DNA of 24,723 nucleotides from a virus (lineage: Duplodnaviria > Caudoviricetes): the IMG/VR virus record IMGVR_UViG_3300022407_000924, positions 1-24,723 of that record, one strand, 5' to 3'. Below are positions 2,464 through 21,600 of the stretch, one piece after another. Each line of letters opens with the position of its first letter. Position 1 is the stretch's first letter. The position numbers and the translations under genes were made by a program. The notes beneath the pieces were generated by a model. The model saw only the letters and a program-made list of their open reading frames with translations, did not search any database and was not told the DNA's origin.

Positions 2464-2714
2464 GCAAAAAGAACGTCAGTCTGGCCATTGGGCGCGGCGA
2501 GAAGTTGCCTGCTTCCAAAGGGGCTGGCCTGACTGCCAAGGGCAGAGCCAAGTACAACGCAGCCACGGGCAGCAACCTGAAGGCACCACAGCCCCAAGGC
2601 GGCGCACGCAAGGACTCGTTTTGCGCCAGAATGAGCGGTGTGCCCGGCCCGATGAAGGACGAAAAAGGCAAGCCAACCCGCAAGGCGGCGGCGCTTGCAA
2701 GATGGAAATGCTGA
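2460..2714 (+). CDS. Small basic phage protein (DUF6321-like, from recall)
   Basis: ATGA overlap. GLTAKGRAKYN..TGSNLKAP, SFCARM and C-terminal WKC motifs resemble a small protein family of aquatic phages; family name not verified. Confidence 0.6.
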   Translation: MSKKNVSLAIGRGEKLPASKGAGLTAKGRAKYNAATGSNLKAPQPQGGARKDSFCARMSGVPGPMKDEKGKPTRKAAALARWKC

Positions 2715-2715
2715 C

Positions 2716-3777
2716 ATGGCCTACTCAAACTCCGTTGGTACAACCGTCATAACGGTCCAAACGCTGATTGATCACGGCGCACGGCGCTGCGGCAAGCTGG
2801 CCGGTGAACTGACCTCGGAGCAAGTACTAAGCTCCCGCGAGTCGCTGTTCTTCCTGTTGTCCAACCTGATCAACATCGGCATCCAGTACTGGGCCATCAG
2901 CAAGAAGGTCTACGGCTTTACGGCTGACAAGGCAACGTACCTGCTCCCTCTGGGCGGCAATGACGTGCTGAACGCCTTGTACCGTTACATGAACCGCCCT
3001 GACGGCAGCTACACCACTTCGGCTGGCGGAACCGTTGCAAACGTCTATGACGGCGACGTAGAGACCGTCTGCACCCAAACCTCGGCCAACGGCAACATTG
3101 CTGTTGACTTTGGCCCGTCCAATCCTATTTTCATCGGCTCCATTGGCTTCCTGCCGGCCTCCAGCGGCACCAAATCATTTATCCTTGAATACTCCCTCGA
3201 CAACGTGACTTGGTCAACCTTGGTCGATCTGGGGCCCATCACCGTGGTGGACAACGAGTGGATCTGGACCGACATTGCCAATGGCCAGACCGTGCCGTAC
3301 TACCGCATCCGGGCCTACAGCGGGACCACTCTAAGCCTACGAGAGTTGTATTTTGGCAACAACAGCACCGAAATCACTATGTCGCGCCTGAACCGCGACG
3401 ACTACACCAACCTGCCCAACAAGAACTTTACAGCTAACCAGCCGTTTCAGTTCTGGTTCAACCGCACCATTCCGCAGAGCGAGATCGTGCTGTGGCCAAC
3501 GCCTCAAGATGCCTTCTATCAGATGACTATCTGGTACTCGCGCCAGATCATGGACGTGGGCGACCTGTACGGCGAGCTGGAGGTACCACAGCGCTGGTAC
3601 GAGGCCGTGGTGATGATGCTGGCTCACCGGATGAGCCTTGAGCTGCCCGGCGTGGACTTGAACCGCGTTCAGTACCTTGAGGGTCAAGCGGCAAAGTACC
3701 TTGCCATGGCCGAAGAGGAAGAGCGCGACAAGTCGCCAATCTACTTTGCCCCGAACATCAGCGTGTACACAAGGTGA
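2716..3777 (+). CDS. Head-to-tail adaptor/DNA stabilisation-type protein with an inserted discoidin (F5/8C-like) domain
   Basis: ATG 2716 lies just after the previous stop. The N-terminal helices (LIDHGARRCG...SLFFLLSNL) and C-terminal LWPTP...VPQRWYEAVVMMLAHRM pattern resemble podovirus adaptors. The central VYDGD, VDFG, LEYSLDNVTW, YYRIR, LRELYF motifs suggest a galactose-binding-like fold. Confidence 0.6.
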   Translation: MAYSNSVGTTVITVQTLIDHGARRCGKLAGELTSEQVLSSRESLFFLLSNLINIGIQYWAISKKVYGFTADKATYLLPLGGNDVLNALYRYMNRPDGSYTTSAGGTVANVYDGDVETVCTQTSANGNIAVDFGPSNPIFIGSIGFLPASSGTKSFILEYSLDNVTWSTLVDLGPITVVDNEWIWTDIANGQTVPYYRIRAYSGTTLSLRELYFGNNSTEITMSRLNRDDYTNLPNKNFTANQPFQFWFNRTIPQSEIVLWPTPQDAFYQMTIWYSRQIMDVGDLYGELEVPQRWYEAVVMMLAHRMSLELPGVDLNRVQYLEGQAAKYLAMAEEEERDKSPIYFAPNISVYTR

Positions 3778-3780
3778 CCG

Positions 3781-4143
3781 ATGGCCATCTTTCTGGACAC
3801 CCTTGGATACTCTGACATTGCGATTGCAATTTGTGATCGGTGCAAGATGAAGCGCCCGCATGCCGTGATGCGCAACGACCCCAACTTGCCGGGTCTCAGG
3901 GTGTGCAACGAGGGTTGTGCAGATGAGCTTGACCCCTACCGCCTGCCGGCTCGCAAAACCGAAAGAATAACAATTCGGTTTCCACGCCCCGACCTTCCAA
4001 TTGGTGCCGGCGATAACTATTTGCTCACGGGCGGCGAGACCAGCGTGTATCAGATCTCAACTGAGGGTAATACCCAGACTCCAACATCTACCGGGAACAG
4101 GGACACCATTTCACCAAACCCGCCAGACAACACGAGCACATAA
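3781..4143 (+). CDS. Small zinc-ribbon phage protein
   Basis: CDRC and CNEGC cysteine pairs, RFPRPD motif; TAATG coupling to the next gene. Confidence 0.7.
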
Positions 4144-5789
4144 TGTCCGCACAAGTCACTATCCTTCAATTGCCAGCGGCCGGTGCCATTACGGGCACGG
4201 AAGCGGTCCCGGTCGTCCAAAATGGCGTGACGGTGCAGACCACCGCCAGTGCCATCTCCGCCTCCCCGTCGCAGCCTTACACCTACCTGACCGTCAGCCA
4301 GACGCCTCAGTTGGCCAACAGCCGCTACGTTGGTGCAACCAATGGTCTGACGGTGACCGACGGCGGGGCGCAGGGCCTGTTCAATATAACGACCACAGAC
4401 GCTTTATTGTCCTTGGTCAACTCCAGCACCGGCATACAAGTCAAAACGTCCTCTACGGCCCTTACAGGCCGTTCTGTGGCCTCTTCCGGGGCGGGGTTGA
4501 CGGTAACCAACGGCTCTGGTGTTTCTGGCGACCCAACCATTGCCTTGAGCGGTCAAGTAGCAAATTTTGCCAACGCCAGTTTTAATGGCCTTGTGGCGCT
4601 TTCAACTGGTGGCGGCATCACTGCTGCAGTCATCACAGGCACCGCAAGTCAAATTGACGTGGCAAACGGCACTGGGGTCAGCGGCAACCCAACGGTTTCT
4701 TTGGCCACCGACCCCGTAATCCCCGGCAACGGGGGGGTCGTGGTTCCAGCCGGAACAACAGGTCAGCGTGGAACGTCTACGCTAGGAAACTTCCGGTTTA
4801 ACTCAACAACAGGCTTGTTTGAGGGTTACAACGGTGCTTGGACTGCATTTGCATCAGGCTCTGGCGTCACTTCAATTGCGACGGGAACTGGCCTAACGGG
4901 CGGTCCAATTACCTCCACCGGCACAATCTCTCTTGCTGACACGGCTGTTACACCGGGTGCGTACACCAACGCAAATGTGACCGTTGACCAGCAAGGCCGG
5001 ATTACTTTGGCGTCAAGTGGCGCAGCGGGGGGTGTAACGACCTTCAGCGCAGGGACCACCGGCCTCACGCCAAACACGGCTACCACCGGTGCAGTTACCT
5101 TGGCCGGCACGTTGGCTGTGGCCAATGGCGGTACAGGGGTTGTAACAAGCACGGGTACAGGCAGCGTTGTGTTGTCTACCAGTCCTACTTTAGTCACCCC
5201 TGATCTAGGCATCCCGGCAAGCGGCACCCTGACCAATGCAACGGGCTTGCCACTTACCACGGGCGTGACTGGCAACCTACCCGTTACCAATCTAAACAGC
5301 GGAACTGGTGCATCTGCCTCTACGTTTTGGCGTGGCGATGGGGCGTGGGCGGCGGCTGGTACAGGTTCAGTTACCAGTGTTGCCCAGTCGTTTACGGGTG
5401 GCATCATTTCGGTGGCCGGTTCACCAATCACGACAAGTGGCACTTTGGCCTTGACGGTTGCCGGAACAAGCGGCGGCGTGCCCTACTTCACAAGCACAAG
5501 CACTTGGGCTACATCTGCTCTGTTGGCGTCCAACGCTTTAATGGTCGGTGGAGGCGCTGGAGTTGCGCCAAGCACTGTGACTACCGGCACGGGCGTTGTG
5601 ACGGCTCTGGGGGTCAATACAGGCACCGCAGGGGCATTTGTGGTCAATGGCGGAGCACTGGGTACACCAAGCAGCGGCACTTTAACTAGCGCCACGGGCT
5701 TGCCACTTACGACGGGCGTGACAGGCATTCTCCCCATAGCCAACGGCGGTACTGGCACAATCTACGGCGTTGCAGGCGGGACATTTTAA
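4143..5789 (+). CDS. Gly/Thr-rich tail fibre protein (548 aa)
   Basis: Dominated by G/T/S/A/V, with [24 protein letters not shown] and LAVANGGTG fibre-shaft motifs; ends in GGTF. Confidence 0.8.
5208..5753 (+). repeat. Internal direct repeat in the fibre gene (2 copies of [21 protein letters not shown])
   Basis: ACGGGCTTGCCACTTAC.ACGGGCGTGAC.GGC occurs at 5241 and 5694, 453 nt apart. Confidence 0.85.
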
Positions 5790-5798
5790 GGAACCATC

Positions 5799-6416
5799 AT
5801 GGCACAAACAAACTTCACACCCATATCGCTGTACCACAGCACAACTGCGGCGGCTGTGCCAACTTCTGGCAATCTTGTTGCCGGTGAGTTGGCGCTCAAC
5901 ACGCTTGATGAAAAGCTGTACTTTAAGAACTCCGCAGGTACCGTAAAACTGCTTGCCGCTAATGTCACTCCAGTAGCTAACGGCGGCACGGGTGTAGCAA
6001 ACAATGCGGCAAGCACACTGACTATTTCAGGGTCTTTTGCATCTAATTTTACTGTTTCTGGTGCGTATACATACACGTTTCCGGGGCAGACCTCTTCTTT
6101 GGGTTACCTTAACGTCCCTCAAACGGGGAGTGCAAAAACAGCAAGTTACCCTTTAGTGGTTGGCGATGTAGGTAAATTCGTTGTTCTTGGCACAAGCGGA
6201 ACAGTTGTGATTCCAGCCAGCGTGTTTGCTGCGGGGGATGTCATATCCATAGTAAATAACACTACAGCGGGTATTTCAAATACTAGCTCTGCTATAACCG
6301 CATACCTTGGCGGTACAAATACAATAGTAACTTCTTTTACATTAGCTAGTCGAGGGGTTTGCACAGTTTTATTTGTGACCGCCTCTGTTGTCTTTATTAC
6401 TGGAAATGTATCGTGA
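5799..6416 (+). CDS. Tail fibre/adapter protein with an Mtd_N-like N-terminal domain
   Basis: AAGGAA precedes the [26 protein letters not shown] resembles the GE(L/I)A..D.KL N-terminal trimer domain of tropism-determinant-type fibres; PVANGGTG motif; C-terminal beta-rich domain. Confidence 0.7.
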
Positions 6417-8065
6417 GTGGAATTATGCTCACAGTTGTCGGTGGCAGCTACGGTGCTGCCCCAGTTAATACTGTGGCCCCCGCAGTTACGGGAACAGCCT
6501 CTGTAGGCTTTACGCTTACAACTACAAATGGAACATGGGCAGGTTCACCAGCACCAACATTTACATATCAATGGTTTAGAAGCCCAAGCACTTCAATTGG
6601 TGGTGCAACTTCTTCATCTTATGTGGTGGTTATAGGTGATTTTGGGTTTGGTATTTTTTGTAGAGTTAAAGCCACTAATGTTATTGCACCATCTGGAGTT
6701 ACGGCTGATTCCAATACCACAGCAGCGGTGACATCAGTCCCGGGCGCACCTACTATTGGAACAGCTACAGCCACAGGAACTACTACCGCAACTGTTGCAT
6801 TTACCCAACCAGCAAGTGATGGTGGGTCTGCAATTACTTTTTACACTGCTACAAGTTCTCCCGATAGCGTTACAGGAACTTTAGCTCAAGCAGGGTCTGG
6901 AACAATTACAGTTTCTGGGTTGACCACTAATACTTTGTATGCATTTACTGTTACGGCTACCAATGCAGCTGGCACAAGTGCAGCAAGTGCGGCAAGTAAC
7001 AGCGTTACACCAGCGCAATTACAACTTTGGACTTGGGGACAAAATAACGCTGGGCAATTAGGACTAAACAACACAACTCAGTATTCATCGCCAAACCAAG
7101 TTGGTGTAACAGTTTGGCTTAATATTTCCGGGGGGCAATATAATACTTTAGCAACCAGAAGCAATGGCACTCTTTGGGCATGGGGTGATGGTTCTTTAGG
7201 TAAACTAGGTCTTGGCAACACTACTTATTATTCTTCTCCTAAACAAGTTGGTGCATTAACCGCATGGTTACACGTGGCAGCATCAAAGTATTTTTCGCTT
7301 GGAACTAAAACAGATGGAACTCTGTGGTCGTGGGGAAATAACAATGATGGTCAGTTAGGTTTAGGTAACACAACTGGATATTCATCTCCAAAACAAGTAA
7401 GTGGAACATTGTGGAGTAAAATTGCTAACGGTTTTAAACACTCTATAGCAACGCAAACAAACGGAACATTATGGTCTTGGGGTCGAAATGCTCAAGGACA
7501 ATTAGGTTTGGGAAACACAACAAGCTATTCAAGCCCAGTACAAATTGGTGCATTAACTAATTGGTCTGTAGTATCTGCTAAATTTAATCAATGTCTTGCT
7601 ATTAAAACAAATGGAACTCTTTGGGCTTGGGGTGTTAATGGTAATTCGCAACTTGGTTTAGGCAATTCTACAAACTACTCTTCTCCCGTTCAAGTCGGTG
7701 CTTTGACTGCATGGATTCAAGTTGCTTGTGGGTCGTATCATACTTTAGCCCTGAAAACCAACGGAACCTTATGGTCTTGGGGAAACAACGTTGGCGGTCA
7801 GTTAGGATTGGGAAACACAACTTCATATAACTCACCAATGCAAGTTGGAGCATTAACCAATTGGTATGATGTTTCTGGTGGGCTTAGGCACTCACTATCT
7901 ACTAAAACAGATGGCACATTGTGGTCTTGGGGCCGAAATGGTCAAGGTCAACTAGGCTTGGGTAACATTACCTATATGTCCTCCCCCAACCAAGTAGGCG
8001 CTTTAACAACTTGGATAGAAGTTTCGGCAGGATACCGTTTTTCTACCGCAACCAAAATTCCGTAA
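6413..8065 (+). CDS. Putative receptor-binding/adhesin protein: Ig-like + fibronectin type III + 7 RCC1 repeats
   Basis: GTG start in a GTGA overlap (MSGIML...). Ig-like [12 protein letters not shown]...TYQW...CRVKATN; FN3 VPGAPTIG...DGGSAIT.Y...GLT....[14 protein letters not shown]; seven LW[TAS]WG.N..GQLGLG blades. Confidence 0.85.
7024..8050 (+). repeat. Seven ~50-aa RCC1 repeats (beta-propeller)
   Basis: LWTWGQN, LWAWGDG, LWSWGNN, LWSWGRN, LWAWGVN, LWSWGNN, LWSWGRN, each followed by G.LGL.N.T..(S/N)SP.QV/I. Confidence 0.9.
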
Positions 8066-8069
8066 ACAC

Positions 8070-9839
8070 ATGAACAAAACACTTCACTTCCTCTCTGGTA
8101 TTCCACGCTCTGGCTCGACAGTCCTTGCGGCTATCCTTAACCAGAATCCAATGACTCATGTCTCAACAACGTCTGGTCTGGTTCATGCGCTGGATGGCTT
8201 GGCAAATACGTGGCACTCGGCTGGGTTGCTGAACGAGAATGACCCTGAGCGGAAGAAGTTAGCCCAAACAATGCGTGGCGCTATTGATGCGTTCTACGAA
8301 GACACAGAGGCTCCGGTCATCATTGACAAGTCCCGTGGCTGGCCTATTTCTCAGATCATGGCGGCTATGTCTCAAGTCCTCGGCCATAAGCCCAAAATCA
8401 TTGCTACGGTGCGCTCAGTGCCTGATTGTGCCGCTTCATTTATCCGTGTGGCAAAACCTGAGAACCTTGACAAGTTTATGTACTCCGGTCAGTTAATGGA
8501 TCACCTGAAGGCTGCTTACATCTCGCTCCAGAACGGCTACGAGTACGCCCCTGAGAACTTCTTGTTTGTTGAGTACGAAGACCTGCTGGCTGACCCTAAA
8601 GCGCAACTGGCCCGTATCCACGCCTTCCTTGAACTGCCTGACTTTTCCTACGACTTTGACAACATTGACGGCTCCACGGTAGCTGAGGATGACGAGAACC
8701 TGCACGGTCACGTAGGTATGCACGATGTCAAGCCCAAGCTGGAAGCACAGCACAAGCAAGACCCCAAAGACCTTCTCAAGTCCCATTACGGAAGTTTCTG
8801 CCAGCCTGAGTTTTGGCTAGAGCGCCCCCGCACCACCCCAGAGCTTCACGCTCTGGATTTGCAGCTTGCGGCGTCCACAACAGGTGACTTTGCTGAAGGC
8901 TGGCGCTTGGCCCAGCAACTGGAAGCTGAAGAGCCAAACAACCACCGTGCCGCTTACAACCGGGGTTGGTACTACCTGCGCCAAGGGCAGATTCAAAAGG
9001 GCTACAGCCTGATGGACAGGGGCCGTGTGGCTGGTGTCTTTGGCAACAAGCACCCCAACGTACCCACCCAGCAGTGGGACGGCAAGACCAAGGGCATCGT
9101 CCTGCTCAATCTTGAGGGTGGTCTGGGCGACCAGATTCACCAAGTGCGCTACGCCAAGTACATTGCGGCACGGGGCTGTAAGGTCATTGTGGCCTGCACA
9201 GGGTCACTCGCATCTCTGTTCGTTGATGTGGAGGGTGTCTCCTCAGTCATCCAACACGAAGCTGTATTCGGCATCTACCACGACTTTTGGGTGGCAGGTA
9301 TGTCGGCGGTAGTGCCACTTGGCTTTGAGTTGGCAGACATCTCTGGCGCTCCATACCTGACAAAGCCGACCACCATCAAAGGCCGCAAGAAACGCATTGG
9401 CCTGCGCTGGCAAGGGCAGAGTCAGTTTGAGCATGAGCACCACAAAAAGTTTCCCTACGAGTTGATGTTTACCGCCGTCAAGGACGCAGACGCTGAGTTC
9501 ATCAGTCTGCAACGGGATGAGGGTGCAGACGCCTGCCCAGCTTGGGTTAAACCCGTGCAGCTAAATAGCTGGGAAGACACCCGCGCTGCTGCGGCATCGT
9601 GCGACTTGGTGATTAGCTCCTGCACCAGCGTCAGCCACCTGTCAGCAGCTATGGGGGTTGAAACTTGGGTCATCACACCCGTCATGCCCTACTTCCTGTA
9701 CGCGCTTGATGGTGAAGCTACACCCTACTACGACAGCATAAAGCTAATGCGCCAAGAAGTATTTGGCGACTGGGCTGCTCCGTTTGATCGCATCAAAGAC
9801 CGTTTGGGCCAGAAACCCGCATTAAGGAGCGTTGCATGA
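8070..9839 (+). CDS. Sulfotransferase / TPR-like / GT9-like glycosyltransferase fusion (589 aa)
   Basis: Sulfotransferase motifs GIPRSGSTVL (5'-PSB loop), DKSR, VRSVPDCAAS (3'-PB) and YEDLLADP. Helical TPR-like EPNNHRAAYNRGWYYL. GT-B motifs EGGLGDQI, IGLRWQG and DLVISSCTSVSHLSAAMGVETWV. Confidence 0.85.
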   Translation: MNKTLHFLSGIPRSGSTVLAAILNQNPMTHVSTTSGLVHALDGLANTWHSAGLLNENDPERKKLAQTMRGAIDAFYEDTEAPVIIDKSRGWPISQIMAAMSQVLGHKPKIIATVRSVPDCAASFIRVAKPENLDKFMYSGQLMDHLKAAYISLQNGYEYAPENFLFVEYEDLLADPKAQLARIHAFLELPDFSYDFDNIDGSTVAEDDENLHGHVGMHDVKPKLEAQHKQDPKDLLKSHYGSFCQPEFWLERPRTTPELHALDLQLAASTTGDFAEGWRLAQQLEAEEPNNHRAAYNRGWYYLRQGQIQKGYSLMDRGRVAGVFGNKHPNVPTQQWDGKTKGIVLLNLEGGLGDQIHQVRYAKYIAARGCKVIVACTGSLASLFVDVEGVSSVIQHEAVFGIYHDFWVAGMSAVVPLGFELADISGAPYLTKPTTIKGRKKRIGLRWQGQSQFEHEHHKKFPYELMFTAVKDADAEFISLQRDEGADACPAWVKPVQLNSWEDTRAAAASCDLVISSCTSVSHLSAAMGVETWVITPVMPYFLYALDGEATPYYDSIKLMRQEVFGDWAAPFDRIKDRLGQKPALRSVA

Positions 9840-10228
9840 GCAATAGTTTATTTGTAAGAATTCAAAACAACGCAGTAACCGACTGCTGGGACACAGCGCC
9901 CCCTGCCGGGCAAGATGGCTGGAAATCAGCCATTGAGGTGAGGCCAGCTATCACAGCGCATCGTCAAGGCTACACCGCCCACACGTTTGACTTGTCCACT
10001 GACCCAGTGCAGATCGTGTACGGAACCTACGACATCCCAGTTGCAGACCGCAAGGTTGGCATGAAAGCCAATGCCTCGTTCAGCTTCCAGCAAGTTGTCC
10101 AAGAACAGATGCGTGATCCAGCAAGCTACGACCTCGCTGCCGTTGCCGCTGCACAAGCTGCCATCGCTCCCAAGGTTGCTGCTATTGAGGCCGCTACAAC
10201 GCATGACGAACTTGACGCGCTGATGTAA
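9836..10228 (+). CDS. Hypothetical protein, possibly tail fibre assembly/chaperone-like (130 aa)
   Basis: ATGA overlap. The C-terminal helical KVAAIEAATTHDEL pattern resembles tail-fibre assembly proteins. Confidence 0.5.
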   Translation: MSNSLFVRIQNNAVTDCWDTAPPAGQDGWKSAIEVRPAITAHRQGYTAHTFDLSTDPVQIVYGTYDIPVADRKVGMKANASFSFQQVVQEQMRDPASYDLAAVAAAQAAIAPKVAAIEAATTHDELDALM

Positions 10229-11070
10229 TGAAAAAAATCCTGATCATGGGCCTACCGGGCAGCGGCAAGACTTACCTTGCACAAGCCCTCAAAGCCTACC
10301 TTGAGAGCAACTCAAGCATCAAGAATATGCCAGCACACAAGATGCAGGACACGGTTCCAGCATCTTACAAGTGCAGCGTGGATTGGTTCAATGCTGACGA
10401 CATCCGCAAGCGGTTCAACGATTGGGATTTTAGCAAAGAGGGCCGCATCCGTCAGTCCCTGCGGATGGCTGAGTTTGCTCTCAAGTCCACTGGCGACTAT
10501 GTCATCTGCGACTTTGTGGCTCCGCTGGTGGAGATGCGGAACAACTTTAAGGCCGATTGGACTGTCTGGATGGACACCATTGACCAAGGACGCTTTGAAG
10601 ATACCAACAAGGCATTTATTCCGCCGAAGGAATATGACTTCCGTGTCACTGAGCAGAACGCCGAGAAGTGGGCTGAGTTCATTGGTCAGCACATCCTAGA
10701 CAGCCGCCGCCGCCCCGTGTTTGACTGGAAGCGGGAAACGGTGCAAATGCTGGGCCGCTGGCAACCGTGGCATCCGGGCCACAGGGCGTTGTTTGACCGG
10801 GCCATTGCCAAGACAGGGCAAGTGGTCATCCAAATCAGGGACTGCCAAGGCTGGAACGGCTCCAACCCATTTGCCGCAGAACAGGTGAAAGACCTGATCA
10901 AGCGTGACCTAGACCCCCTGTACCAAGGCCAGTACGAGATACAGCTTGTGCCCAATGTCACAAATATTACCTATGGTAGGGACGTAGGCTACAAGATTGA
11001 GCAGGAGGTGTTTGACGCTGCTACCCACGCCATCTCAGCAACTGAAATCCGAAAGAAGATGGGTGTGTGA
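10228..11070 (+). CDS. Adenylylsulfate (APS) kinase-like P-loop domain fused to a HIGH-superfamily nucleotidyltransferase
   Basis: GLPGSGKT P-loop, NADDIR, DFSKEGRIRQSLR, CDFVAPLVEMR and FIPP (CysC-like). C-terminal MLGRWQPWHPGH (HxGH), SNPF and ISATEIR. Confidence 0.8.
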   Translation: MKKILIMGLPGSGKTYLAQALKAYLESNSSIKNMPAHKMQDTVPASYKCSVDWFNADDIRKRFNDWDFSKEGRIRQSLRMAEFALKSTGDYVICDFVAPLVEMRNNFKADWTVWMDTIDQGRFEDTNKAFIPPKEYDFRVTEQNAEKWAEFIGQHILDSRRRPVFDWKRETVQMLGRWQPWHPGHRALFDRAIAKTGQVVIQIRDCQGWNGSNPFAAEQVKDLIKRDLDPLYQGQYEIQLVPNVTNITYGRDVGYKIEQEVFDAATHAISATEIRKKMGV

Positions 11071-11279
11071 TGACTGAGAAAATGATCAGCGAGACTGAGG
11101 CAAAGCTGGCTACGCATGAGGCCATCTGCGCCGAAAGATACGAGGGCATCCAGAAGAGTTTTGCCGCTGGTTCAAAACGTATGGCAAAGATTGAGTACCT
11201 GCTGTACGGCGTGATTGTCTGCGTGTTGTTTGGCCCCGGCGTAGCGGCTGATCTTGTCAAGAAAGTATTAGGGTTGTGA
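11070..11279 (+). CDS. Small coiled-coil + C-terminal TM protein (lysis-cassette-associated)
   Basis: HEAICAERY coiled coil, then hydrophobic YLLYGVIVCVLFG. Start is ATG 11070 or GTG 11067. Confidence 0.65.
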   Translation: MTEKMISETEAKLATHEAICAERYEGIQKSFAAGSKRMAKIEYLLYGVIVCVLFGPGVAADLVKKVLGL

Positions 11280-11280
11280 T

Positions 11281-11427
11281 GTGGATTTCTTTGAAATCTT
11301 GTCTAAGGCATGGCCCATCCTGCTGGCGATCATCACGCTGATCATCGTGCTAGCTAAACTCGACTTGCGGGTGGCGGTGTTGGAAGAGAAGATCAAAACT
11401 CTGTTTGAGATGTGGAACAAGAAATGA
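11281..11427 (+). CDS. 48-aa membrane protein absent from the ORF track (MDFFEILSKAWPILLAIITLIIVLAKLDLRVAVLEEKIKTLFEMWNKK)
   Basis: Translated by hand: GTG 11281 to TGA 11425-11427. Fills the gap between neighbours with an ATGA overlap; one TM helix plus coiled coil. Confidence 0.75.
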   Translation: MDFFEILSKAWPILLAIITLIIVLAKLDLRVAVLEEKIKTLFEMWNKK

Positions 11428-11648
11428 AAGCCAAGCTCACTTTCTTCGTCACCTTGATGGTCAGCATGACTTTGTGTATCGTTGTCTTGTCAATGTCCGG
11501 TGTAATGCTGCTTGGACTGTTTGATGAAAAGGTGGACAACAACAAGATTTTTGAACTTGTTGGCCCTGCATTTCAAACCATTGTTGGTGGTTTTATTGGC
11601 TTACTTGCAGGCGTCAAACTATCGCATGAGGAAGAAAAGAAATGCTAA
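11424..11648 (+). CDS. Two-TM small membrane protein (holin-like)
   Basis: ATG 11424 in an ATGA overlap. Two hydrophobic segments, PAFQTIVGGFIGLLAG, and a charged C-terminus. Confidence 0.65.
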   Translation: MKAKLTFFVTLMVSMTLCIVVLSMSGVMLLGLFDEKVDNNKIFELVGPAFQTIVGGFIGLLAGVKLSHEEEKKC

Positions 11649-12133
11649 CCCTACTCTCAACCCTCATCAGCTTTCTGGCTGGTGGCCTGCCCAAGCTGCT
11701 TGGCTTTTTCCAAGACCGTGCTGACAAAAAACATGAGATGGCGATGGCCCAGTTGCAGATTGAGCGCGAACTGGAACTCCGCAAGGCTGGCTTTGAAGCC
11801 CAGCAGCGGGTGGAGGAGATCAAAGTTGAGGGCCAAGCCATTGAAGCCGAGGCGTCAGAACGGGCCGCACTCTACGCGCACGACATAGCCATAGGACAGG
11901 GTGCTAGTCAGTGGATGGTCAACCTGCGCTCCGGTGTCAGGCCCATGCTGACCTACGGCTTTTTCGGCCTGTTTGCCTTCGTGGAAGTTGGCGGCTTTAT
12001 TTACGCTTGGCATCGGGACATTGCCTTTGATGTGCTGATTGCAAAACTGTGGGACGCCGACACACAGATTATCTTTGCCAGCATCATCAGCTTCCACTTT
12101 GGTGGACGGGCGTTCAAGGGGAGTAGGGATTGA
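11642..12133 (+). CDS. Holin-like protein (GTA 3TM holin-like)
   Basis: N-terminal hydrophobic helix, coiled coil, SGVRPMLTY and C-terminal SFHFGGR with two TM segments; directly upstream of the endolysin. Confidence 0.6.
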   Translation: MLTLLSTLISFLAGGLPKLLGFFQDRADKKHEMAMAQLQIERELELRKAGFEAQQRVEEIKVEGQAIEAEASERAALYAHDIAIGQGASQWMVNLRSGVRPMLTYGFFGLFAFVEVGGFIYAWHRDIAFDVLIAKLWDADTQIIFASIISFHFGGRAFKGSRD

Positions 12134-12606
12134 AGGTCTCCGACCGCTGCAAGGAGATGATCAAGCATCATGAAGGCGTTAGGTTTAAACCGTACCGTTG
12201 CCCAGCAAGGCTTTGGACTGTAGGAGTTGGTCATGTTTTATACCCCGCTCAAGGACGTTTACCGCTGGATCAAAGAGACGCTTTCCCGCTTGCGCCAGAG
12301 GATAGTCGGGCTTTTTCAAAGGATGAGGTAGATGGAACCCTTAGTTTTGATCTCCAGCGATTTGAAGTTGGGGTCGCCCGACTTTTTCCTCTGGTGCTTA
12401 CCCAAGGTCAAAATGATGCTCTTGTCAGCTTTGCTTTTAATCTGGGTTTGGGGGGCGTACAGCGAAGCACCCTCCGTCAAAAGGTTCTTCGGGGCGAGAC
12501 GCAAGAAGCGGCAGATGAGTTCTTGAAATTTGTAAGGGGTGGGGGTAAAATCCTACCGGGGCTAGTCAAGCGTCGCAATGACGAACGTGCCCTGTTCCTG
12601 TCTTAA
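12130..12606 (+). CDS. Endolysin, GH24 phage lysozyme
   Basis: HEG..(E-x8-C-x5-T)..WTVGVGH, DALVSFAFNLG, STL, GLVKRRNDERALFL. TTG start in a TTGA overlap. Confidence 0.92.
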   Translation: MKVSDRCKEMIKHHEGVRFKPYRCPARLWTVGVGHVLYPAQGRLPLDQRDAFPLAPEDSRAFSKDEVDGTLSFDLQRFEVGVARLFPLVLTQGQNDALVSFAFNLGLGGVQRSTLRQKVLRGETQEAADEFLKFVRGGGKILPGLVKRRNDERALFLS

Positions 12607-12635
12607 AAACGCAACGTCGGATAACGGAGAACACA

Positions 12636-13271
12636 ATGACAGTCGCAGCCGTAATGACGTACGACAGTTTGGTTAACGACATCCAGACCTATCTGGAGCG
12701 CACAGACCAGCAGACGCTAGACAAAATTCCGCAGTTCATCATGCTGGCAGAGCAGATTATTGCGGCTGAGATCAAATTTCTTGGCAACCTGACTGTAGCC
12801 ACAAGCACCATGGTGGCCTCTGATAATGTTATCCCCAAGCCCGCACGCTGGCGCAAAACGGTTTCAATGAACGTCACCGTGGCAGGCAAGCGCCAGCCTG
12901 TTCTGCTTCGTACCTACGAGTACATCCGTGAGTATTGGCCAGAAGCGGCCAGCACGGACGTACCGTTATTTTTTTGCGACTACGACTACACGCACTGGTT
13001 GGTAGGGCCCACCCCCACATTGGCCTACTCCTACGAGGTGCTGTACTACGAGCGCTTGCAGCCCTTGGACTCATCAAACCAATCAAGCTGGTTTACCCAG
13101 TACGCCCCGCAAGCGCTGCTGTATGGCACTTTGCTGCAAGCCATGCCGTTCATCAAGAATGACGAACGCATGCCTATGTGGCAAAGCAACTACGACAAAA
13201 TCATTGAAGTCCTGAAGACGGAGAACGTCATTCGTGCCGCCGATCGTCAGGCGATTGTGAGGGATTCATGA
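12636..13271 (+). CDS. Tail adaptor / tail tubular A-like protein
   Basis: GGAGA SD. MTYDSLVNDIQTYLER...IPQFIMLAE...GPTP...Y.VLYY...APQALLYGTL is the pattern of podovirus adaptor rings. Confidence 0.7.
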   Translation: MTVAAVMTYDSLVNDIQTYLERTDQQTLDKIPQFIMLAEQIIAAEIKFLGNLTVATSTMVASDNVIPKPARWRKTVSMNVTVAGKRQPVLLRTYEYIREYWPEAASTDVPLFFCDYDYTHWLVGPTPTLAYSYEVLYYERLQPLDSSNQSSWFTQYAPQALLYGTLLQAMPFIKNDERMPMWQSNYDKIIEVLKTENVIRAADRQAIVRDS

Positions 13272-14764
13272 GTTTTAATAGCCCGTTTACCGGTCAGGTA
13301 ATTCAGCCAACCGACGTTTCATATCGAAGCATCACGCTTTCCGAAGACAGCACGCTGTCGTGGCCAATTAACGGCAGCGACACAGACAACGCGGCCGCCC
13401 GGGTCATGGACGTCACGTCGCTGTCAAGCGGCTTGGTCCTTGCTGGCGTCCTTGTTGCAGGCACGGGCGGGCAGTGCTCTTGCACCACTACCCCCAGCCT
13501 TTTCGTTGGCCAAGCCGTCGTTGTCACTGGGACTCTAACCGGCACGGCGACAGGCATTGTCACTGGCAATACCTACTACATCATTCTCACCAACGGCACG
13601 ACTACCTTTACGCTGTCGGCTACTTCAGGCGGCACGGCGGTGGCCACCACGGCCGGCACGACGACCGGCCTGACCTTCACGCTTGACTCGTTCACCTTGG
13701 ACATGCCGCCTGCAAATCAGGCGTCGGTGGGTATTGATGCCTTGTTCCGCAACGTCGGCTCTTACAGTTTTGAGGTCAGGACTTACGCAGGCGGCTCAAT
13801 CGTCACAATCGCCCCCGGTGAGGCTAAGTACATCTACCTGACCACCAACGCCACCACGGCGGGCACATGGGGACTAATAGCCTTTGGCGTGGGTACATCC
13901 AACGTGGATGCGGCCACCCTTGCTGGATTTGGCCTCAAGGCCATCTCTAACACCTTGAACGGGGCTATTGAGGTCAACACCTTTGCGTCCAACTACACCG
14001 CTCTGGCCACGGACCGTGCCTCAACTTATGTCTGGACTGGCGGCGCTGGCACCCTAACCCTAACGTCAGCCGTTACATTGGGCAATGATTGGTACATGAT
14101 GGTCCGCAACGGCGGGACTGGCACGCTGACCATTGCGCCATCTGGCGGTGACCTAATTAATGGCGCTGCAAATATTTCATTGCAGCCGGCCGACTCTTGT
14201 GTGCTTTGCTGCTCCGGCTCTGCCTTCTTCACTGTTGGCTTGGGCCGTAGCACTCAGTTCAACTTTACCCAGCTCACCAAGGCTGTGGTGTCTGGGAGCT
14301 ACACCCTGACCGCCGCCGAGGCCGCCAATGTAATTCAAAAGTACACCGGAACTCTGTCAGCCAATGTGACCGTGGTTCTGCCCCAAACCGTGCAGGTGTA
14401 CTACATCACGAACCAGACCAATGGTGGCGGCCCCGGCTATCAGATTACTTTTACCACGAGCGGTGGCGGGTCCACGGCGGTTGTTCCGGCCGGCCAGCAG
14501 GTAATTTTGCTGTGCGACTCAATCAACTTGCTCAACGCCTCTACGATCGCCGCCGGCGCGTTAAATATATCTCTGGCGGACGGCACAGTGGGCGCTCCAT
14601 CGCTGAACTTTGGAACGGAAACGTCAACGGGCGTTTACCGCCCCGGCTCCGGCGAGTTCGGTATTGCAATCTTGGGCGTCAAGCTGTTTGGGCTGACTGC
14701 TACTGGGTTGAACATACCGGGCACCGGGAACTTTACTGGGGGTGTTCAGGGCGGGCTTTTCTGA
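13268..14764 (+). CDS. Tail structural/fibre-like protein (498 aa)
   Basis: ATGA overlap; G/T/S-rich beta domains, DGTVGAPSLNF motif, C-terminal GGLF; lies between the adaptor and nozzle genes. Confidence 0.7.
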   Translation: MSFNSPFTGQVIQPTDVSYRSITLSEDSTLSWPINGSDTDNAAARVMDVTSLSSGLVLAGVLVAGTGGQCSCTTTPSLFVGQAVVVTGTLTGTATGIVTGNTYYIILTNGTTTFTLSATSGGTAVATTAGTTTGLTFTLDSFTLDMPPANQASVGIDALFRNVGSYSFEVRTYAGGSIVTIAPGEAKYIYLTTNATTAGTWGLIAFGVGTSNVDAATLAGFGLKAISNTLNGAIEVNTFASNYTALATDRASTYVWTGGAGTLTLTSAVTLGNDWYMMVRNGGTGTLTIAPSGGDLINGAANISLQPADSCVLCCSGSAFFTVGLGRSTQFNFTQLTKAVVSGSYTLTAAEAANVIQKYTGTLSANVTVVLPQTVQVYYITNQTNGGGPGYQITFTTSGGGSTAVVPAGQQVILLCDSINLLNASTIAAGALNISLADGTVGAPSLNFGTETSTGVYRPGSGEFGIAILGVKLFGLTATGLNIPGTGNFTGGVQGGLF

Positions 14765-17250: not shown

Positions 17251-17500
17251 TCCCGCTCAGATCTACGACCCGCGCTACAGCACGTTTGAATCGTGGGCAA
17301 GCCTCATGTGCGAGCTGTACGGGGCCCAGAATCTTCAGATTCCTGATGGCCAGACGGACTGGAGGCTGTGGGGCAATGGCTTAATTGCGATTGACGTTTT
17401 TGCAAACGAGGCTACGCCCCGCACGGAACAGTACGACAATTGGTTTGATTGGGCCGAGGCCATGGTGGCGGCGGTCAACCCAGCGACGCAAACAACATGA
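17240..17500 (+). CDS. Small phage hypothetical protein (86 aa, Trp-rich)
   Basis: Overlaps both neighbours; DPR...W...W..W...W..WA pattern. Confidence 0.7.
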   Translation: MALNPAQIYDPRYSTFESWASLMCELYGAQNLQIPDGQTDWRLWGNGLIAIDVFANEATPRTEQYDNWFDWAEAMVAAVNPATQTT

Positions 17501-18180
17501 ACTGGTGTGGCGACTCCCAATTCTTCACGCGGAACTGCAACGCCGTGAGCACGCTGTTTCCGGCGTGGGAGCGGGCGTTTGTGGCTGTGGCCAAGCATCA
17601 CCTGTTGCATGTCACGGACGCAGACCTAAAGCGCCGCATTCAAGAGTTTATCGGCGAAGAGCTGGCCCACGCCAGTGCCCATGATGCCTACAACGCCCGC
17701 GCCGGCATCACTGAGGTGGCCAACGCGGAGTACCGCAAGACCCGTCTGATCCACCGCCGCCCGGGCGCAAAGCTGTGGCTGGGCAGCATGGTGTCAATTG
17801 AGCACTTTGCAGCCTGCATGGGGCGCATGTACCTCGACCTGTACGGCAACAAGGTCGGGCGCGACCACAATTTGTTCGCGTGGCACTCTCGCGAAGAGAT
17901 TGGCCACAAGGACTTGGCCATGGACCTTTGGCGCAGTTTAGGCTACTCAGACGCTGATCTGCGGGCAATTGCAAGGCAAAATCAAGTTTATGTCATTAAA
18001 TTTATTGTGAGCCACACCTTTCAAGGTGTCAGTTTTCGGAGTTTCAAAGACTGGACTGACTTTGCGCACTGGGCGTGGCACATGACAACCAAGGTACTGG
18101 TGCCCATGCTCAAAATTTATTTACCCAACTTTCACCCCGGGCGGGTGGACGATCGACGCTACTTGGGAGTGGCCGCATGA
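17497..18180 (+). CDS. Predicted metal-dependent hydrolase (PF10118-like, ferritin-like di-metal fold)
   Basis: ATGA overlap at 17497. NAVSTLFPAWE, FIGEELAHASAHDAYN, EHFAA, WHSREEIGHK and C-terminal Y.PNFHP match the family pattern as recalled. Confidence 0.78.
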   Translation: MNWCGDSQFFTRNCNAVSTLFPAWERAFVAVAKHHLLHVTDADLKRRIQEFIGEELAHASAHDAYNARAGITEVANAEYRKTRLIHRRPGAKLWLGSMVSIEHFAACMGRMYLDLYGNKVGRDHNLFAWHSREEIGHKDLAMDLWRSLGYSDADLRAIARQNQVYVIKFIVSHTFQGVSFRSFKDWTDFAHWAWHMTTKVLVPMLKIYLPNFHPGRVDDRRYLGVAA

Positions 18181-18662
18181 CCGTTGCAGGCCTGCACCCA
18201 GTTAGCTCCAAGGAGCACATGCTGATCCCCACCGACATCTTTGCGGTGGCGGCGCATGAGGACAAAGAACGTTTGGAGGACATCAAACAGGCCGCCAAGA
18301 AGGCCGGCGTGTCACCTGAGCGCTTTGCCTACAGCATGATGATCCAAGAGTACAGCGACCCCAGACTGATCCGCATCCGGGCAGGCAACACCCTGTTTAC
18401 CATTGCGGCCTTTCCCAAAAGGGTTGGCTTTGTCCGGGGCTACAACGCAGACGTTGCCAAAATCTACATTGACAACATGATTGAGCTGTTTGAGGCTGGG
18501 CGCAAAATGGGTTTTGATTATTTGGTTGCCCACACCAGTAATGCGGTAGTGCAGGCTTTAAAGGTGGCGATCAAAAACATCAAGCAGGATGACTTTATCC
18601 CGCACTTTGATTCCCGCACAAAAATGTTCATGCTCAAGACCGGAAAGCCGAGGGCTGAGTAA
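18177..18662 (+). CDS. Hypothetical protein preceding the internal virion genes (161 aa)
   Basis: ATGA overlap at 18177 (alternative start 18219 after AAGGAG). Alpha/beta pattern; position resembles the T7 gp13-like slot (inference). Confidence 0.65.
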   Translation: MTVAGLHPVSSKEHMLIPTDIFAVAAHEDKERLEDIKQAAKKAGVSPERFAYSMMIQEYSDPRLIRIRAGNTLFTIAAFPKRVGFVRGYNADVAKIYIDNMIELFEAGRKMGFDYLVAHTSNAVVQALKVAIKNIKQDDFIPHFDSRTKMFMLKTGKPRAE

Positions 18663-21600
18663 TGGGTTACGTCAAAGAAAAAATAGGCTTTGACATTGCT
18701 GACCCGTTTACGTCGGTAGGCAAAATTATTGAAAAAGCCGCACAGACAATTGTCAATACTGTTGAAGCAATTTTAAAAGATCCGCTGCCAACTATTTTGC
18801 AAGTAGCCGGTTCCTATTTTGGTATACCGCCGTACGTAACATCCGCCGCCATTACTGCAATAAAAGGCGGCAGTATTGAGGACATAGCTAAGTCTGCGGC
18901 AGTATCTTATGCAACCCAAAAGTTTGGAGATTCAGATTTTGCCAAGGGTGTTTCTAATTTTGCAAAAACAACAGGGCAAGACTTTACGGCCGGCATGATG
19001 AAAACGTTTGACCTGCCTGCTGACATTGCCTTGTCTGTAGGCAAAGCAGCAACTGCTGGGTTAAATTCAAGTTTTACAGGCGGCTTCAATGCGCTTATGG
19101 CTGGAAAAAACATTGGCGAAGGCATGACGTCTGGGTTCACGTCCGGTGCAATTAATTCTGGCACAACCAGCTACTTTAACAGCCTCAAGGTTAATCCAAG
19201 CTGGGGAGTAGGTACCAAAACATTCGACTTGATTAAGGGAAGCGCCAGTGTAGCGTTGAACACCTTAGTAAGCGGCAACGGAAATATAGTGCAGGCCGTC
19301 GGCACTTATTTAGGGAACGCTGCTCTTGAAATGGGTCAGTCTGAGGTTACCAATCAATTTAAAACAAAATTTAACATTTATTCTAAAGCAGAGCGGGACG
19401 CCATTAATCAACAAGACGCCAGAAACGTAGTAGCAGATTTATATAATGATGGTTTAAGAGCCGCAGAAAAAATTCGTACTGATGCAACTACGTTGATGGC
19501 AGATTACGAAAACGGAATAAAAACAATTTACGAGCCCTATGTTGAAAAAGTAAATAAATTAAACACAGACGTAGCAGATTACAAAAAAGATTATGATTAT
19601 TATGTAAAAGAAGTAGAGAGGGCTAACGCTTATGTTCAACCAGAAACATACGGCGTTACCGGCGAAAATGCAGAAGGCCAAACATTGTATGGGTTTGTTA
19701 AAACTGGAGAAACTAAAGAACAAGTTATTGCTAAAGTAAAAGCACTAGAGCCTAGTTTGCAAGCTAAAGGCGAGGCAATAAACACGGATTATGCCGCCGT
19801 TACCGCAAGCTCCGCAGCAGTAGAGGGTTTAACAACATTAAAAACATCAACAGAAACAAAAATTGCTGAGTACGACACAGCAAGAGCAAATTTAGAAACA
19901 CCTGCTGGAGAGAATCTGGCCGCAAAATTAGCGGCAGAAGACAAAAAGTTAGAAACAGCATATGAAGTTTTAACTACGGCCAAAACAGATGCGGATACTG
20001 CTGCTGACAATTTTGATAAAGCTGTAGGAGCCGTAGCAATCAGAAACGTTGCAATTGATGCGCTCAATTCAGGCGCTATCACGGTCACAGGTGTAGAGGC
20101 TGATGGCTCGTATAAGTTGTCAAACAATACTTTCTTGAAGGACGGCAAGTTTTACCAAGACGGCAACCAGTTGTTTACCGAAGCCGGCGGCACCAGACAG
20201 AACGACCTAAATTTCACAGACAGCACGGGCAACAAGGTGGTGTACGACTCCAGTGCCGGCCGCACCATGTCAACCAGCGACGTTAAACAAGCCTTCTTGC
20301 GCGACTTTGGCTTTGACGTTGATGACACAACAGCGGCGGCTTTTGTTGGCAAGCCATACAACGCAGTAGATCACAAGGCGTATGAGAATGTTGTTGACAA
20401 TAAAATAACGACAGCTCATACCGCCTTGACTGGCAACACGTTAAGTGCTGAAGATTTGTCGTTGATTAAAAACTCAACCGGTTCAGCTATCAAAAATGAA
20501 GATGGCGCAGCAGTTATATTGACGGACAAGCAAGTAAACAATTTATTAGCTAAACAATTTATATTTGAAGGCGGTGATTTTAATACCAAACAGGATGCGG
20601 CAAGGGCCGCCAGATTGGCGGGGTATACGCAGTTTGAGTATGACAACAGCATCTACACAATGACCAGTGCTGGGCCAACTGAAAAAGACGTGTACCAAGC
20701 TGTTATTAACGATGCCCCAAATAAAAAAGAAGCCTTTGCACTTGCACGCAGTTTAATGGGCGCAGACAAAGTCTTTGATTACAAGGGCACATCTTTTACC
20801 ACCTCATATTATAAACCACCGGCTCAACCAGATCAACAAGTCCTTGGTGATGGAACCGCCAATACCAGCAGGGCGGGCACAAGGGTTGGCGCTCCTGTCA
20901 CAACAACTGAAGGACTGACTTATTTAACAGACCAAGAGAAATCGGTAAATCAAAGAATCTCAGAGGCATATGAAGGAACAACGTTATCAAAAATAGTTGG
21001 CACTACTGATGATGCGCTGCAAACTTTAATTTCCACAAAAGATATATTGTTGGGTCCAGCTAAAGGGGTTATCAGTACAGTAAAGTGGCTTGCTGATAGT
21101 TACTCAATTATTACTGGGGATATAGGCAATCCAGTATCTGAATCCATGCGCGGCTTGTTAAATAATTTAGATGAGTTAACAGGCGACAGAACAAAAGCTA
21201 CATTAAAAACCATGCAAGCCGTCATTGACGCAGCGGCAAAAGACGGGCAAGGCTCCGCAGCATGGGAGACAGCTAAACAACTAGTAACACATCCAGATAT
21301 AACAGTCGGCTTAGTTACACAGGCAATTAGTACGGTATTCCCTTCGCTTGCGGCTGCCGGGCCAATGATTGCGGCTGGCGTTCCAGTTGGTGTTGCAGCA
21401 TCTACTGCTATTGCTATCAACGCTCTATCGCACGGTGGTAGCGTAGCGCAAAGTGCTTATGAATATTTTGTAAAACAGGGAATGGAGGATCCCAGTCTTA
21501 GTATTGAGCAAGTACAAGCCTTAGCATTAACCGCAGGTCAAACAGCGCTTGTTCCTGCAACAGCCATTAGTGCAGTTATTAATTCGTTACCGCTTGCAAA

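Follow-up and report, generated by a model that had tools for sequence, protein, structure and literature searches.

The window analyzed in this study is a single virus record of 24,723 bases (IMGVR_UViG_3300022407_000924; Caudoviricetes), which carries, directly behind the gene of a predicted fiber head, a cassette of three overlapping genes on the + strand (8070 to 11070). They encode a 589-residue fusion of a sulfotransferase, a TPR module, and a glycosyltransferase of GT-B fold; a 130-residue protein (Orf130); and a 280-residue protein in which an adenosine 5′-phosphosulfate (APS) kinase-like domain is joined to a small nucleotidyltransferase (NT). We propose, with a probability of about 50%, that the cassette makes 3′-phosphoadenosine 5′-phosphosulfate (PAPS) late in infection and that sugar and sulfate are put on the propeller or fiber proteins of the phage itself. 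Taken alone, the notion that the target is one of the phage's own structural proteins is rather more credible than not. To judge from sequence and genomic context, the NT is quite probably a new minimal ATP sulfurylase, and with the same confidence the 280-residue protein can be regarded as a PAPS synthase.

The cassette adjoins an RCC1 propeller gene

The gene upstream of the cassette (6413..8065, + strand, with a GTG start codon at 6413 or an ATG at 6425) had been called an adhesin in the initial annotation. The gene is present, and its product is more precisely an FN3 plus seven-blade RCC1 β-propeller protein (Pfam fn3, 6e-9; RCC1, 2e-72 over seven stretches), a predicted fiber head and the candidate substrate of the cassette. 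Serine and threonine make up 26% of its residues and aspartate plus glutamate only 1.8%, and the G+C content of the gene (0.42 to 0.46) is below that of its neighbors. The propeller loop reads G-N-T-T-x-Y-S-S-P (window 7013-8065 and the RCC1 genes of loci L002 to L152). Tyrosine occupies a surface-loop position in 840 of 1,398 RCC1 blades, and an N-x-S/T sequon occurs in 1,150 of the 1,398 blades, all of which were taken from cassette loci. Given these sequons, the loops may be N-glycosylated, which we keep as a lead; the GT9-like glycosyltransferase speaks otherwise. A complex prediction for the fusion protein with the RCC1 domain scored 0.00 twice and weighs neither way. Relatives of the phage possess up to several RCC1 paralogues on either side of the fusion gene.

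As initially annotated, the three overlapping genes follow the adhesin gene on the + strand, as do all long open reading frames (ORFs) of the window, whose matches include an adaptor, fiber-like proteins, an endolysin, and other structural proteins. The fusion gene (8070-9839) starts 4 nt past the stop codon of the RCC1 gene and overlaps orf130 (9836-10228) in ATGA, orf130 overlaps the kinase-NT gene (10228-11070) in TAATG, and small ORFs separate the cassette from the endolysin gene at 12130. Codon comparison with relatives indicated purifying selection on all three genes, with 120 synonymous versus 21 nonsynonymous codon differences to the relative L013, and 32 versus 2 in the NT part to the relative L102. 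Scans of positions 3000 to 13500 for promoters (9 versus 6.4 expected) and terminators (8 versus 12.1 expected) remained at chance level.

The fusion gene was found in 184 viral stretches, the kinase-NT gene in about 860, and the NT in about 3,500. Seventy-six fusion loci were fetched, 65 with at least 2.5 kb of upstream sequence and 39 with 5 kb of downstream sequence; they are redundant, their 68 full-length proteins forming 17 groups at 90% identity. An RCC1 homologue stood directly before the fusion gene in all 65 informative loci. Behind the fusion gene, orf130 followed in 38 of 39 loci, and the kinase and the NT were present in 27 and 14 of the 39, respectively. Over the kinase-NT gene and both flanks, the relative L102 and the window share 87 to 89% identity; in between (L102:2986-8001 versus window 5964-10227), the RCC1 gene, the fusion gene, and orf130 are swapped for FN3-Lcl adhesins, a different small ORF, and a stand-alone sulfotransferase 28% identical to that of the window, and no glycosyltransferase was seen in this locus. 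In L090, a Stf0-type sulfotransferase gene lies two genes before the same kinase-NT gene. Such a joint exchange of adhesin and transferase, in which the donor enzyme stays, is as expected of a modifier matched to its substrate and served by a shared PAPS supply. The predicted co-occurrence of the fusion gene with fiber genes across phages was thus observed, and independent assortment was not seen.

An association with structural modules holds for the fusion gene and not for the cassette as a whole, as the kinase-NT gene alone also sits away from such modules in large phages. In phage Sano, it lies in a nonstructural region next to a NADAR gene, with an ORF resembling sulfotransferases located two genes upstream (PF17784, E value 4e-4, below the cutoff). 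The occurrence of kinase-NT apart from fibers suggests a general-purpose donor module, the link to fibers belonging to the fusion enzyme. A sulfotransferase homologue was present in 39 of 48 kinase-NT loci. No cultured phage with the whole fusion was found, 11 records matching single domains. In the four of six lake metatranscriptome runs that were compared with this region, relatives were represented by short contigs only, which indicates presence and neither transcription nor habitat. In several large phages (L270:8951-10807, L285:2881-4079, L288:2586-5555, L299, and L310), the kinase-NT gene adjoins a TctC-like gene and ORFs whose products begin in a P-loop-like manner (GPQGSG, GAPGSKWS); these ORFs, which have no Pfam match, are possibly very divergent sulfotransferases.

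The fusion protein combines a sulfotransferase with a GT9-like glycosyltransferase

Residues 1 to 258 of the fusion protein (8070..8843, + strand) constitute a PAPS-dependent sulfotransferase domain, recognized by a match of residues 7 to 190 to PF13469 (Sulfotransfer_3; E value 4.7e-16; 60.1 bits versus a cutoff of 27) and by the 5′-phosphosulfate-binding (5′-PSB) and 3′-phosphate-binding (3′-PB) motifs of such enzymes (PF13469/PF00685). R13, S14, T17, K87, R115, and S123 are invariant in all 34 aligned sequences. A model of the fusion was obtained from this 34-row alignment with a predicted local distance difference test (pLDDT) score of 88.8. In it, the sulfotransferase domain came closest to the human and tick tyrosylprotein sulfotransferases TPST1/2 (Z scores of 18.0 to 18.6), followed by CurM (16.2), an olefin-synthase domain (15.8), and carbohydrate sulfotransferases (at most 14.4). 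PRSG, K87, and R115 of the fusion align with motifs of TPST2; the two proteins share only 16% identity, and the fusion is a soluble phage protein.

A short TPR module follows (about residues 259 to 325; 8844..9044, + strand), visible in the model as a stretch of helical hairpins and in the sequence as weak matches to Pfam TPR_16/17 below the cutoff (E value of about 0.006); it aligns to the TPRs of AspH and OGT with a Z score of 11. The C-terminal part of the fusion gave no Pfam match, PF01075 included, and its assignment as a GT-B glycosyltransferase domain of the GT9/heptosyltransferase-like kind (about residues 330 to 586; 9045..9839, + strand) comes from the fold of the model, in which residues 337 to 586 yielded Z scores of 16.3 with WaaC, 15.9 with WaaF, 15.3 with a third GT9 entry, and 15.1 with TibC. 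With these qualifications, the sulfotransferase-TPR-GT9 architecture proposed initially was borne out. D354, H357, T519, S520, and H523 of the GT-B domain are invariant in 34/34 sequences; D354 lies in GGLGDQIH, a motif that makes it a putative counterpart of TibC D110. Among 152 loci of relatives, the genes after the cassette include those for PfkB (18 loci), an RfaE-II-like/CTP-transferase protein (10), an epimerase (19), and a cupin (16), which stand directly behind it in L008, L015, L049, L059, L064, L073, and L096. Together these neighbors resemble the ADP-heptose pathway with its RfaE- and HldD-like enzymes, and such ADP-heptose-like genes would fit a GT9-like enzyme.

Two known types of protein glycosyltransferase resemble the fusion. 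With TibC/AAH, the partners of TibA/AIDA-I, it shares a GT-B fold near WaaC, an invariant aspartate at the start of the domain, and an adjoining gene for a Ser/Thr-rich adhesin; it differs by carrying a sulfotransferase and a TPR where TibC has its N-terminal barrel, and its putative substrate is a propeller and not a β-helix as in TibA/AIDA-I. A feature of the BAHT family, according to PMC4358343, is a four-cysteine iron finger in the C-lobe. This finger was not found in the fusion, whose C-terminal half contains only C489, C511, and C518, with C489 kept in 21 of 34 sequences. The lack of the iron finger and the replacement of the TPST Glu-Glu pair by Thr-Thr (see below) place the fusion outside both BAHT and TPST. 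In Caulobacter FlmG, as described in PMC7591256, a TPR precedes a GT-B domain and binds the flagellin substrate in the cytoplasm before assembly. The fusion has the same TPR-then-GT-B order, a likeness of architecture; its TPR is shorter, it has the extra sulfotransferase domain, and FlmG transfers pseudaminic acid to flagellin. The modeled fold suggests that the fusion likely works like a protein glycosyltransferase of the FlmG or TibC type joined to a PAPS-dependent sulfotransferase.

The kinase-NT protein combines a trimmed APS kinase fold with a NadM-like domain

The composition of the 280-residue protein, an APS-kinase-like domain fused to an HxGH nucleotidyltransferase, was confirmed. 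Its kinase domain (residues 1 to 161; 10228..10710, + strand) matches PF01583 with an E value of 5e-7 (5-94 of 152) and contains GLPGSGKT at residue 8. Of 48,161 chains compared, the five closest in fold were all APS kinases (Z scores of 13.2 to 15.8), with shikimate kinase at 12.7. The APS-binding segments (D-x-x-R, F-S/T-x-E-x-R, and F-V-x-P-x-x-x-x-R) align to 2yvu and are invariant or nearly so in alignment A1. The score of a full-length CysC was missed (20.5 bits versus a TIGR00455 cutoff of 138.7), and GRFEDTN sits in the region of the CysC lid segment, which in CysC reads RDPKGLY. In the model, the domain is a trimmed APS kinase fold, which argues for the corresponding activity.

The 116-residue NT (10720..11070, + strand) contains the motifs GRWQPWHPGH (residue 176), YGRDVGY, and ISATEIR. 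HPGH and ISATEIR fit the HxxH and C-terminal SxTxxR nucleotide-binding motifs and are at least 96% conserved across the distant representatives aligned. Besides H182 and H185 of the HxGH motif, R204 and R251 are conserved arginines of the NT. The NT did not match PF01747 at an E value of 0.01 (116 residues versus a model of 212 positions), and GRWQP stands where QxRN, the sulfate motif of Sat-type ATP sulfurylases, would be. A Sat-type enzyme of the HIGH superfamily, implied by the initial annotation, is therefore absent, and the NT is not a CysD member either; what is present is a different, NadM-like minimal domain: GRWQPWHPGH aligns to the GRFQPFH-x-GH motif of NadM in 2qjt and 1f9a, and the best matches of the NT are NadM-like nicotinamide mononucleotide (NMN) adenylyltransferases, at scores far under the cutoffs (27 bits versus 127 for NF002243 and 25.8 versus 181 for TIGR01527) and over the first 60 to 70 positions only. 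A fold search with the whole 280-residue model gave lists filled by the kinase domain. Like human PAPSS1 (1x6v) and the Aquifex Sat-CysC protein (2gks), the phage protein joins an APS kinase fold (Z scores of 14.3 to 14.6) to a HIGH-superfamily nucleotidyltransferase, and the kinase comes first, as in PAPSS1. The known proteins have 530 to 590 residues, whereas the phage protein has 280, with a trimmed kinase and an NT of 116 residues that is NadM-like and has neither PF01747 nor QxRN.

Fusions and genome profiles link the NT to sulfation

Fifty-eight longer NT representatives of 150 listed were scanned for additional domains, and most of them carry an APS-kinase-like domain. The NT is fused to a canonical full-length CysC in both orders, NT first in P0269 (E value 6e-63) and NT last in P0358 and P0382. 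Five further apparent fusions (P0262, P0265, P0271, P0291, and P0377) were excluded from the count as presumed assembly chimeras.

Outside phages, 450 GTDB stretches encode the NT, usually as a 130-residue gene product directly behind the same short kinase. In SAR86 and other marine bacteria (L172:7595-8387 and similar loci; G044:C1:1170252-1171008), short kinase and NT form a two-gene operon, often beside a sulfotransferase gene, and neither Sat nor CysD was found. Fifty NT-bearing bacterial genomes, taken from 50 of 80 loci, contained a PF13469 sulfotransferase in 49 cases, Sat in 2, and CysD in 1. In a sample of 121 genomes of the SAR86 order that had not been selected for the NT, 63 had the NT and 70 a sulfotransferase (both, 61; NT only, 2; sulfotransferase only, 9; neither, 49; Fisher test, 5e-22, a value that overstates independence because these genomes are related and incomplete). 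The two genes lay less than 600 bp apart in at least 21 of these genomes; CysD was present in 2, both NT negative, and Sat in 1. No such relation existed to NadD (both, 25; NT only, 38; NadD only, 32; neither, 26; P = 0.10): the NT does not stand in for NadD in NadD-less genomes, contrary to what a NadM-type role would predict, and its link to the sulfotransferase persists within both the NadD-positive and the NadD-negative subsets. Of 16 genomes of a Bacteroidota family, 11 contained the NT and none contained CysD, and the three members checked all had a canonical CysC, followed by a gene that we take to be CysQ-like, and no Sat. A SAR116-like family, with the NT in 1 of 26 genomes, was uninformative. 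RfaE-II-like and NT genes coexist in eight loci, which indicates that the two are not interchangeable. The initial proposal that the phage makes its own PAPS is thus well supported by context, though by a route other than a Sat-type enzyme.

A gene for a small DUF2061 membrane protein lies beside or between the kinase and NT genes in L164 (8352-8564), L187, and L200, and in L036 (14265-14891) a DUF2061-like segment is apparently fused to the kinase. One divergent NT copy occurs amid surface-polysaccharide-like genes.

Proposed mechanism and alternatives

In the mechanism that we propose, the NT would join ATP and sulfate to form APS, as its fusions and genome profiles suggest, and the trimmed kinase would convert APS to PAPS, as its fold suggests. 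By analogy to FlmG, the TPR would hold the newly made propeller or fiber chain. The GT-B domain would then use an ADP-sugar to place a heptose-like sugar on Ser/Thr, D354 acting as the base; this donor is suggested by the RfaE/HldD-like genes that adjoin the cassette in relatives, and the nucleotide-sugar would come from the host. The sulfotransferase would add sulfate, with a slight preference on our part for the sugar over direct transfer to Tyr, Ser, or Thr. Orf130 might aid fiber assembly. The outcome would be anionic, decorated receptor-binding heads, possibly serving charge, shielding, or receptor tuning.

A number of observations weigh against this mechanism. The CGEET sequence of TPST2 aligns to VSTTS in the fusion, Glu-Glu becoming T33-T34 in what is a sequence alignment only; we take TPST2 E99, which follows the PSB loop, to be the catalytic glutamate, and the fusion would then miss this base. 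GT9 enzymes usually act on lipopolysaccharide (LPS). The NT is closest to NMN adenylyltransferases, its model is moderately confident (pLDDT of about 37 to 81 by block), and two divergent NT copies have no evident kinase or sulfur gene nearby. No sugar-donor gene was found on the window contig, which together with the incomplete retention of kinase and NT behind the fusion makes the original description of the cassette as self-contained an overstatement. Two near-complete relatives (98 to 100% completeness) have the kinase and no NT, and four of five partial contigs have neither. In a wider NT scan, our own profile placed a sulfotransferase within about 6 kb in only 12 of 27 loci; for two of the remaining loci, the contig has one farther off, and 26 ORFs chosen from the last 13 contained no Pfam sulfotransferase. 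Phage DLP_6 carries kinase-NT and gave no PF13469 or PF17784 match.

Among the alternatives, the nearest is a variant of the proposed mechanism itself, with the same enzymes and the same virion target, in which the glycosyltransferase marks Ser/Thr and the sulfotransferase directly marks Tyr (or Ser/Thr), so that two separate marks and no sulfated glycan result. The closeness of the fold to TPSTs and not to carbohydrate sulfotransferases, the loop tyrosine of the RCC1 blades, and the occurrence of the same sulfotransferase family beside adhesins in L102, where the locus has no glycosyltransferase, agree with it. We nevertheless consider it unlikely: the Glu-Glu pair of TPST2 is Thr-Thr here, TPSTs favor acidic sites and the RCC1 protein is poor in Asp and Glu, and the presence of both enzymes in one chain suggests sequential action. 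A modification of the host envelope (at its cytoplasmic face, on the LPS core or some other glycan), blocking superinfection or easing release, would suit the LPS heptosyltransferases WaaC and WaaF as nearest folds and the accompanying ADP-heptose-like genes; it is rather improbable in view of the position of the cassette amid late structural genes, the strict adjacency to RCC1 genes and joint exchange with adhesins, and the TPR beside the glycosyltransferase as in the protein glycosyltransferase FlmG.

The remaining alternatives concern the donor enzyme and the nature of the substrate. If the NT were an NMN adenylyltransferase or a sugar-phosphate nucleotidyltransferase, there would be no PAPS synthase and the phage would rely on host APS or PAPS. 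Its GRFQPFH-type motif and best matches to NadM, the NADAR gene adjacent in Sano, and its absence from many cassettes can be read in this way; its score of 27 bits against the NMN adenylyltransferase cutoff of 127, its independence of NadD, the CysC fusions in both orders, the coexistence with RfaE-II-like genes, and the sulfotransferase-like ORF of Sano make such a role improbable. Phage cysC is usually read as assimilatory, as in PMC10914622, which reports its transcription in a lake. That the kinase-NT gene is in this sense an auxiliary gene of assimilatory sulfate reduction with incidental neighbors is very improbable, because sulfotransferases from several families are found next to it, its translation is coupled to that of the cassette in the window, and no reductase gene appeared among the neighbor clusters scanned. 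Hardly any credence can be given to a hypermodification of phage DNA with a sulfated sugar. It would be in keeping with phage RSL1, where a related kinase is accompanied by glycosyltransferases, a sulfotransferase, and thymidylate synthase family genes, and with some kinase-NT genes in apparent 7-deazaguanine clusters (L120, L149, L309, and L314, whose QueE, QueD, and FolE genes are our own assignments from the sequences); the surroundings of the fusion gene in its clade showed no base-modifying genes, and the fusion has a TPR and lies among fiber genes. The clusters in L120, L149, L309, and L314 also hold glycosyltransferase genes. In RSL1 (L156:7995-16354), the kinase gene is followed by genes for glycosyltransferases, nucleotidyltransferases, a sulfotransferase, an HMUDK-domain protein, and thymidylate synthase, making this cluster a candidate for sulfo-glycosyl DNA modification.

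Precedents and implications

Neither this cassette nor phage particle sulfation nor a minimal ATP sulfurylase was described in the literature covered, which excluded most subscription papers and supplements, and PMC12801897 contained nothing of relevance. In 2010, Iyer et al. (PMC2938197) predicted operons in bacteria that combine genes for hydroxylases, sulfotransferases, PAPS synthetases, and tail-collar or collagen-like proteins. Sulfation of co-encoded fiber-like proteins with a linked PAPS supply is predicted in both cases; those operons are bacterial, follow a hydroxylate-then-sulfate scheme, and are computational predictions only, and the part of that article available mentions neither a GT9 fusion nor a minimal NT. 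Mycobacteriophages encode glycosyltransferases that modify their own structural proteins, capsid and tail tube (Freeman et al. 2023, as cited in PMC12619734). Phage glycosyltransferases acting on own structural proteins would thus be common to both systems; fiber heads would be the target here, and sulfation and donor synthesis do not appear in the mycobacteriophage account as cited there. A new enzyme class is possibly contained in the cassette.

If our interpretation is true, phages that are very common in lakes would possess, in the sulfation of their particles, a new level of shielding or of host recognition. The APS gap of SAR86 and other streamlined marine bacteria, which hold sulfotransferases and have no known APS route, would be closed by a 116-residue ATP sulfurylase that differs from Sat and is not related to CysD. 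Many phage "cysC" genes now assigned to sulfur cycling as auxiliary genes (e.g., in PMC10914622) would need to be reread as donor supply for macromolecule modification, and PAPS regeneration could make use of a PAPS synthase as compact as 280 residues. A still broader scenario is speculative and in its entirety doubtful: a widespread class of aquatic phages would coat swappable RCC1 heads with a sulfated heptose-type glycan by means of the one-chain fusion enzyme and the 280-residue PAPS synthase, and the NT would be a third, NadM-derived type of ATP sulfurylase that accounts for PAPS in SAR86 and further abundant ocean bacteria as well, where its source is missing.

Orf130 and other features of the window

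Orf130 (9836-10228, + strand) had been described as chaperone-like. The ORF exists, and the likeness to chaperones is weak: none of 31 members matched a Pfam family, Orf130 had no match in cultured phages, the nearest named Atlas clusters are tail chaperones (0.85 to 0.87, a lead only), and the PF16778 (DUF4376-like) chaperone that occupies the slot of orf130 in L150 aligned to it with an hhalign probability of 11%. Its position and this slight resemblance hint at a role in fiber assembly.

Two SU10-adaptor-like genes (2695-3777 and 12636-13271) bracket the block of fiber, cassette, and lysis genes, the former with a weak F5/8 type C insertion. A predicted metal-dependent hydrolase (PF10118, 8e-37) is encoded amid structural genes at 17449-18180, and a 1,857-residue ORF with only a weak PHROG match and an A-rich middle of low G+C content (0.42 to 0.46) extends from 18662 to 24235.

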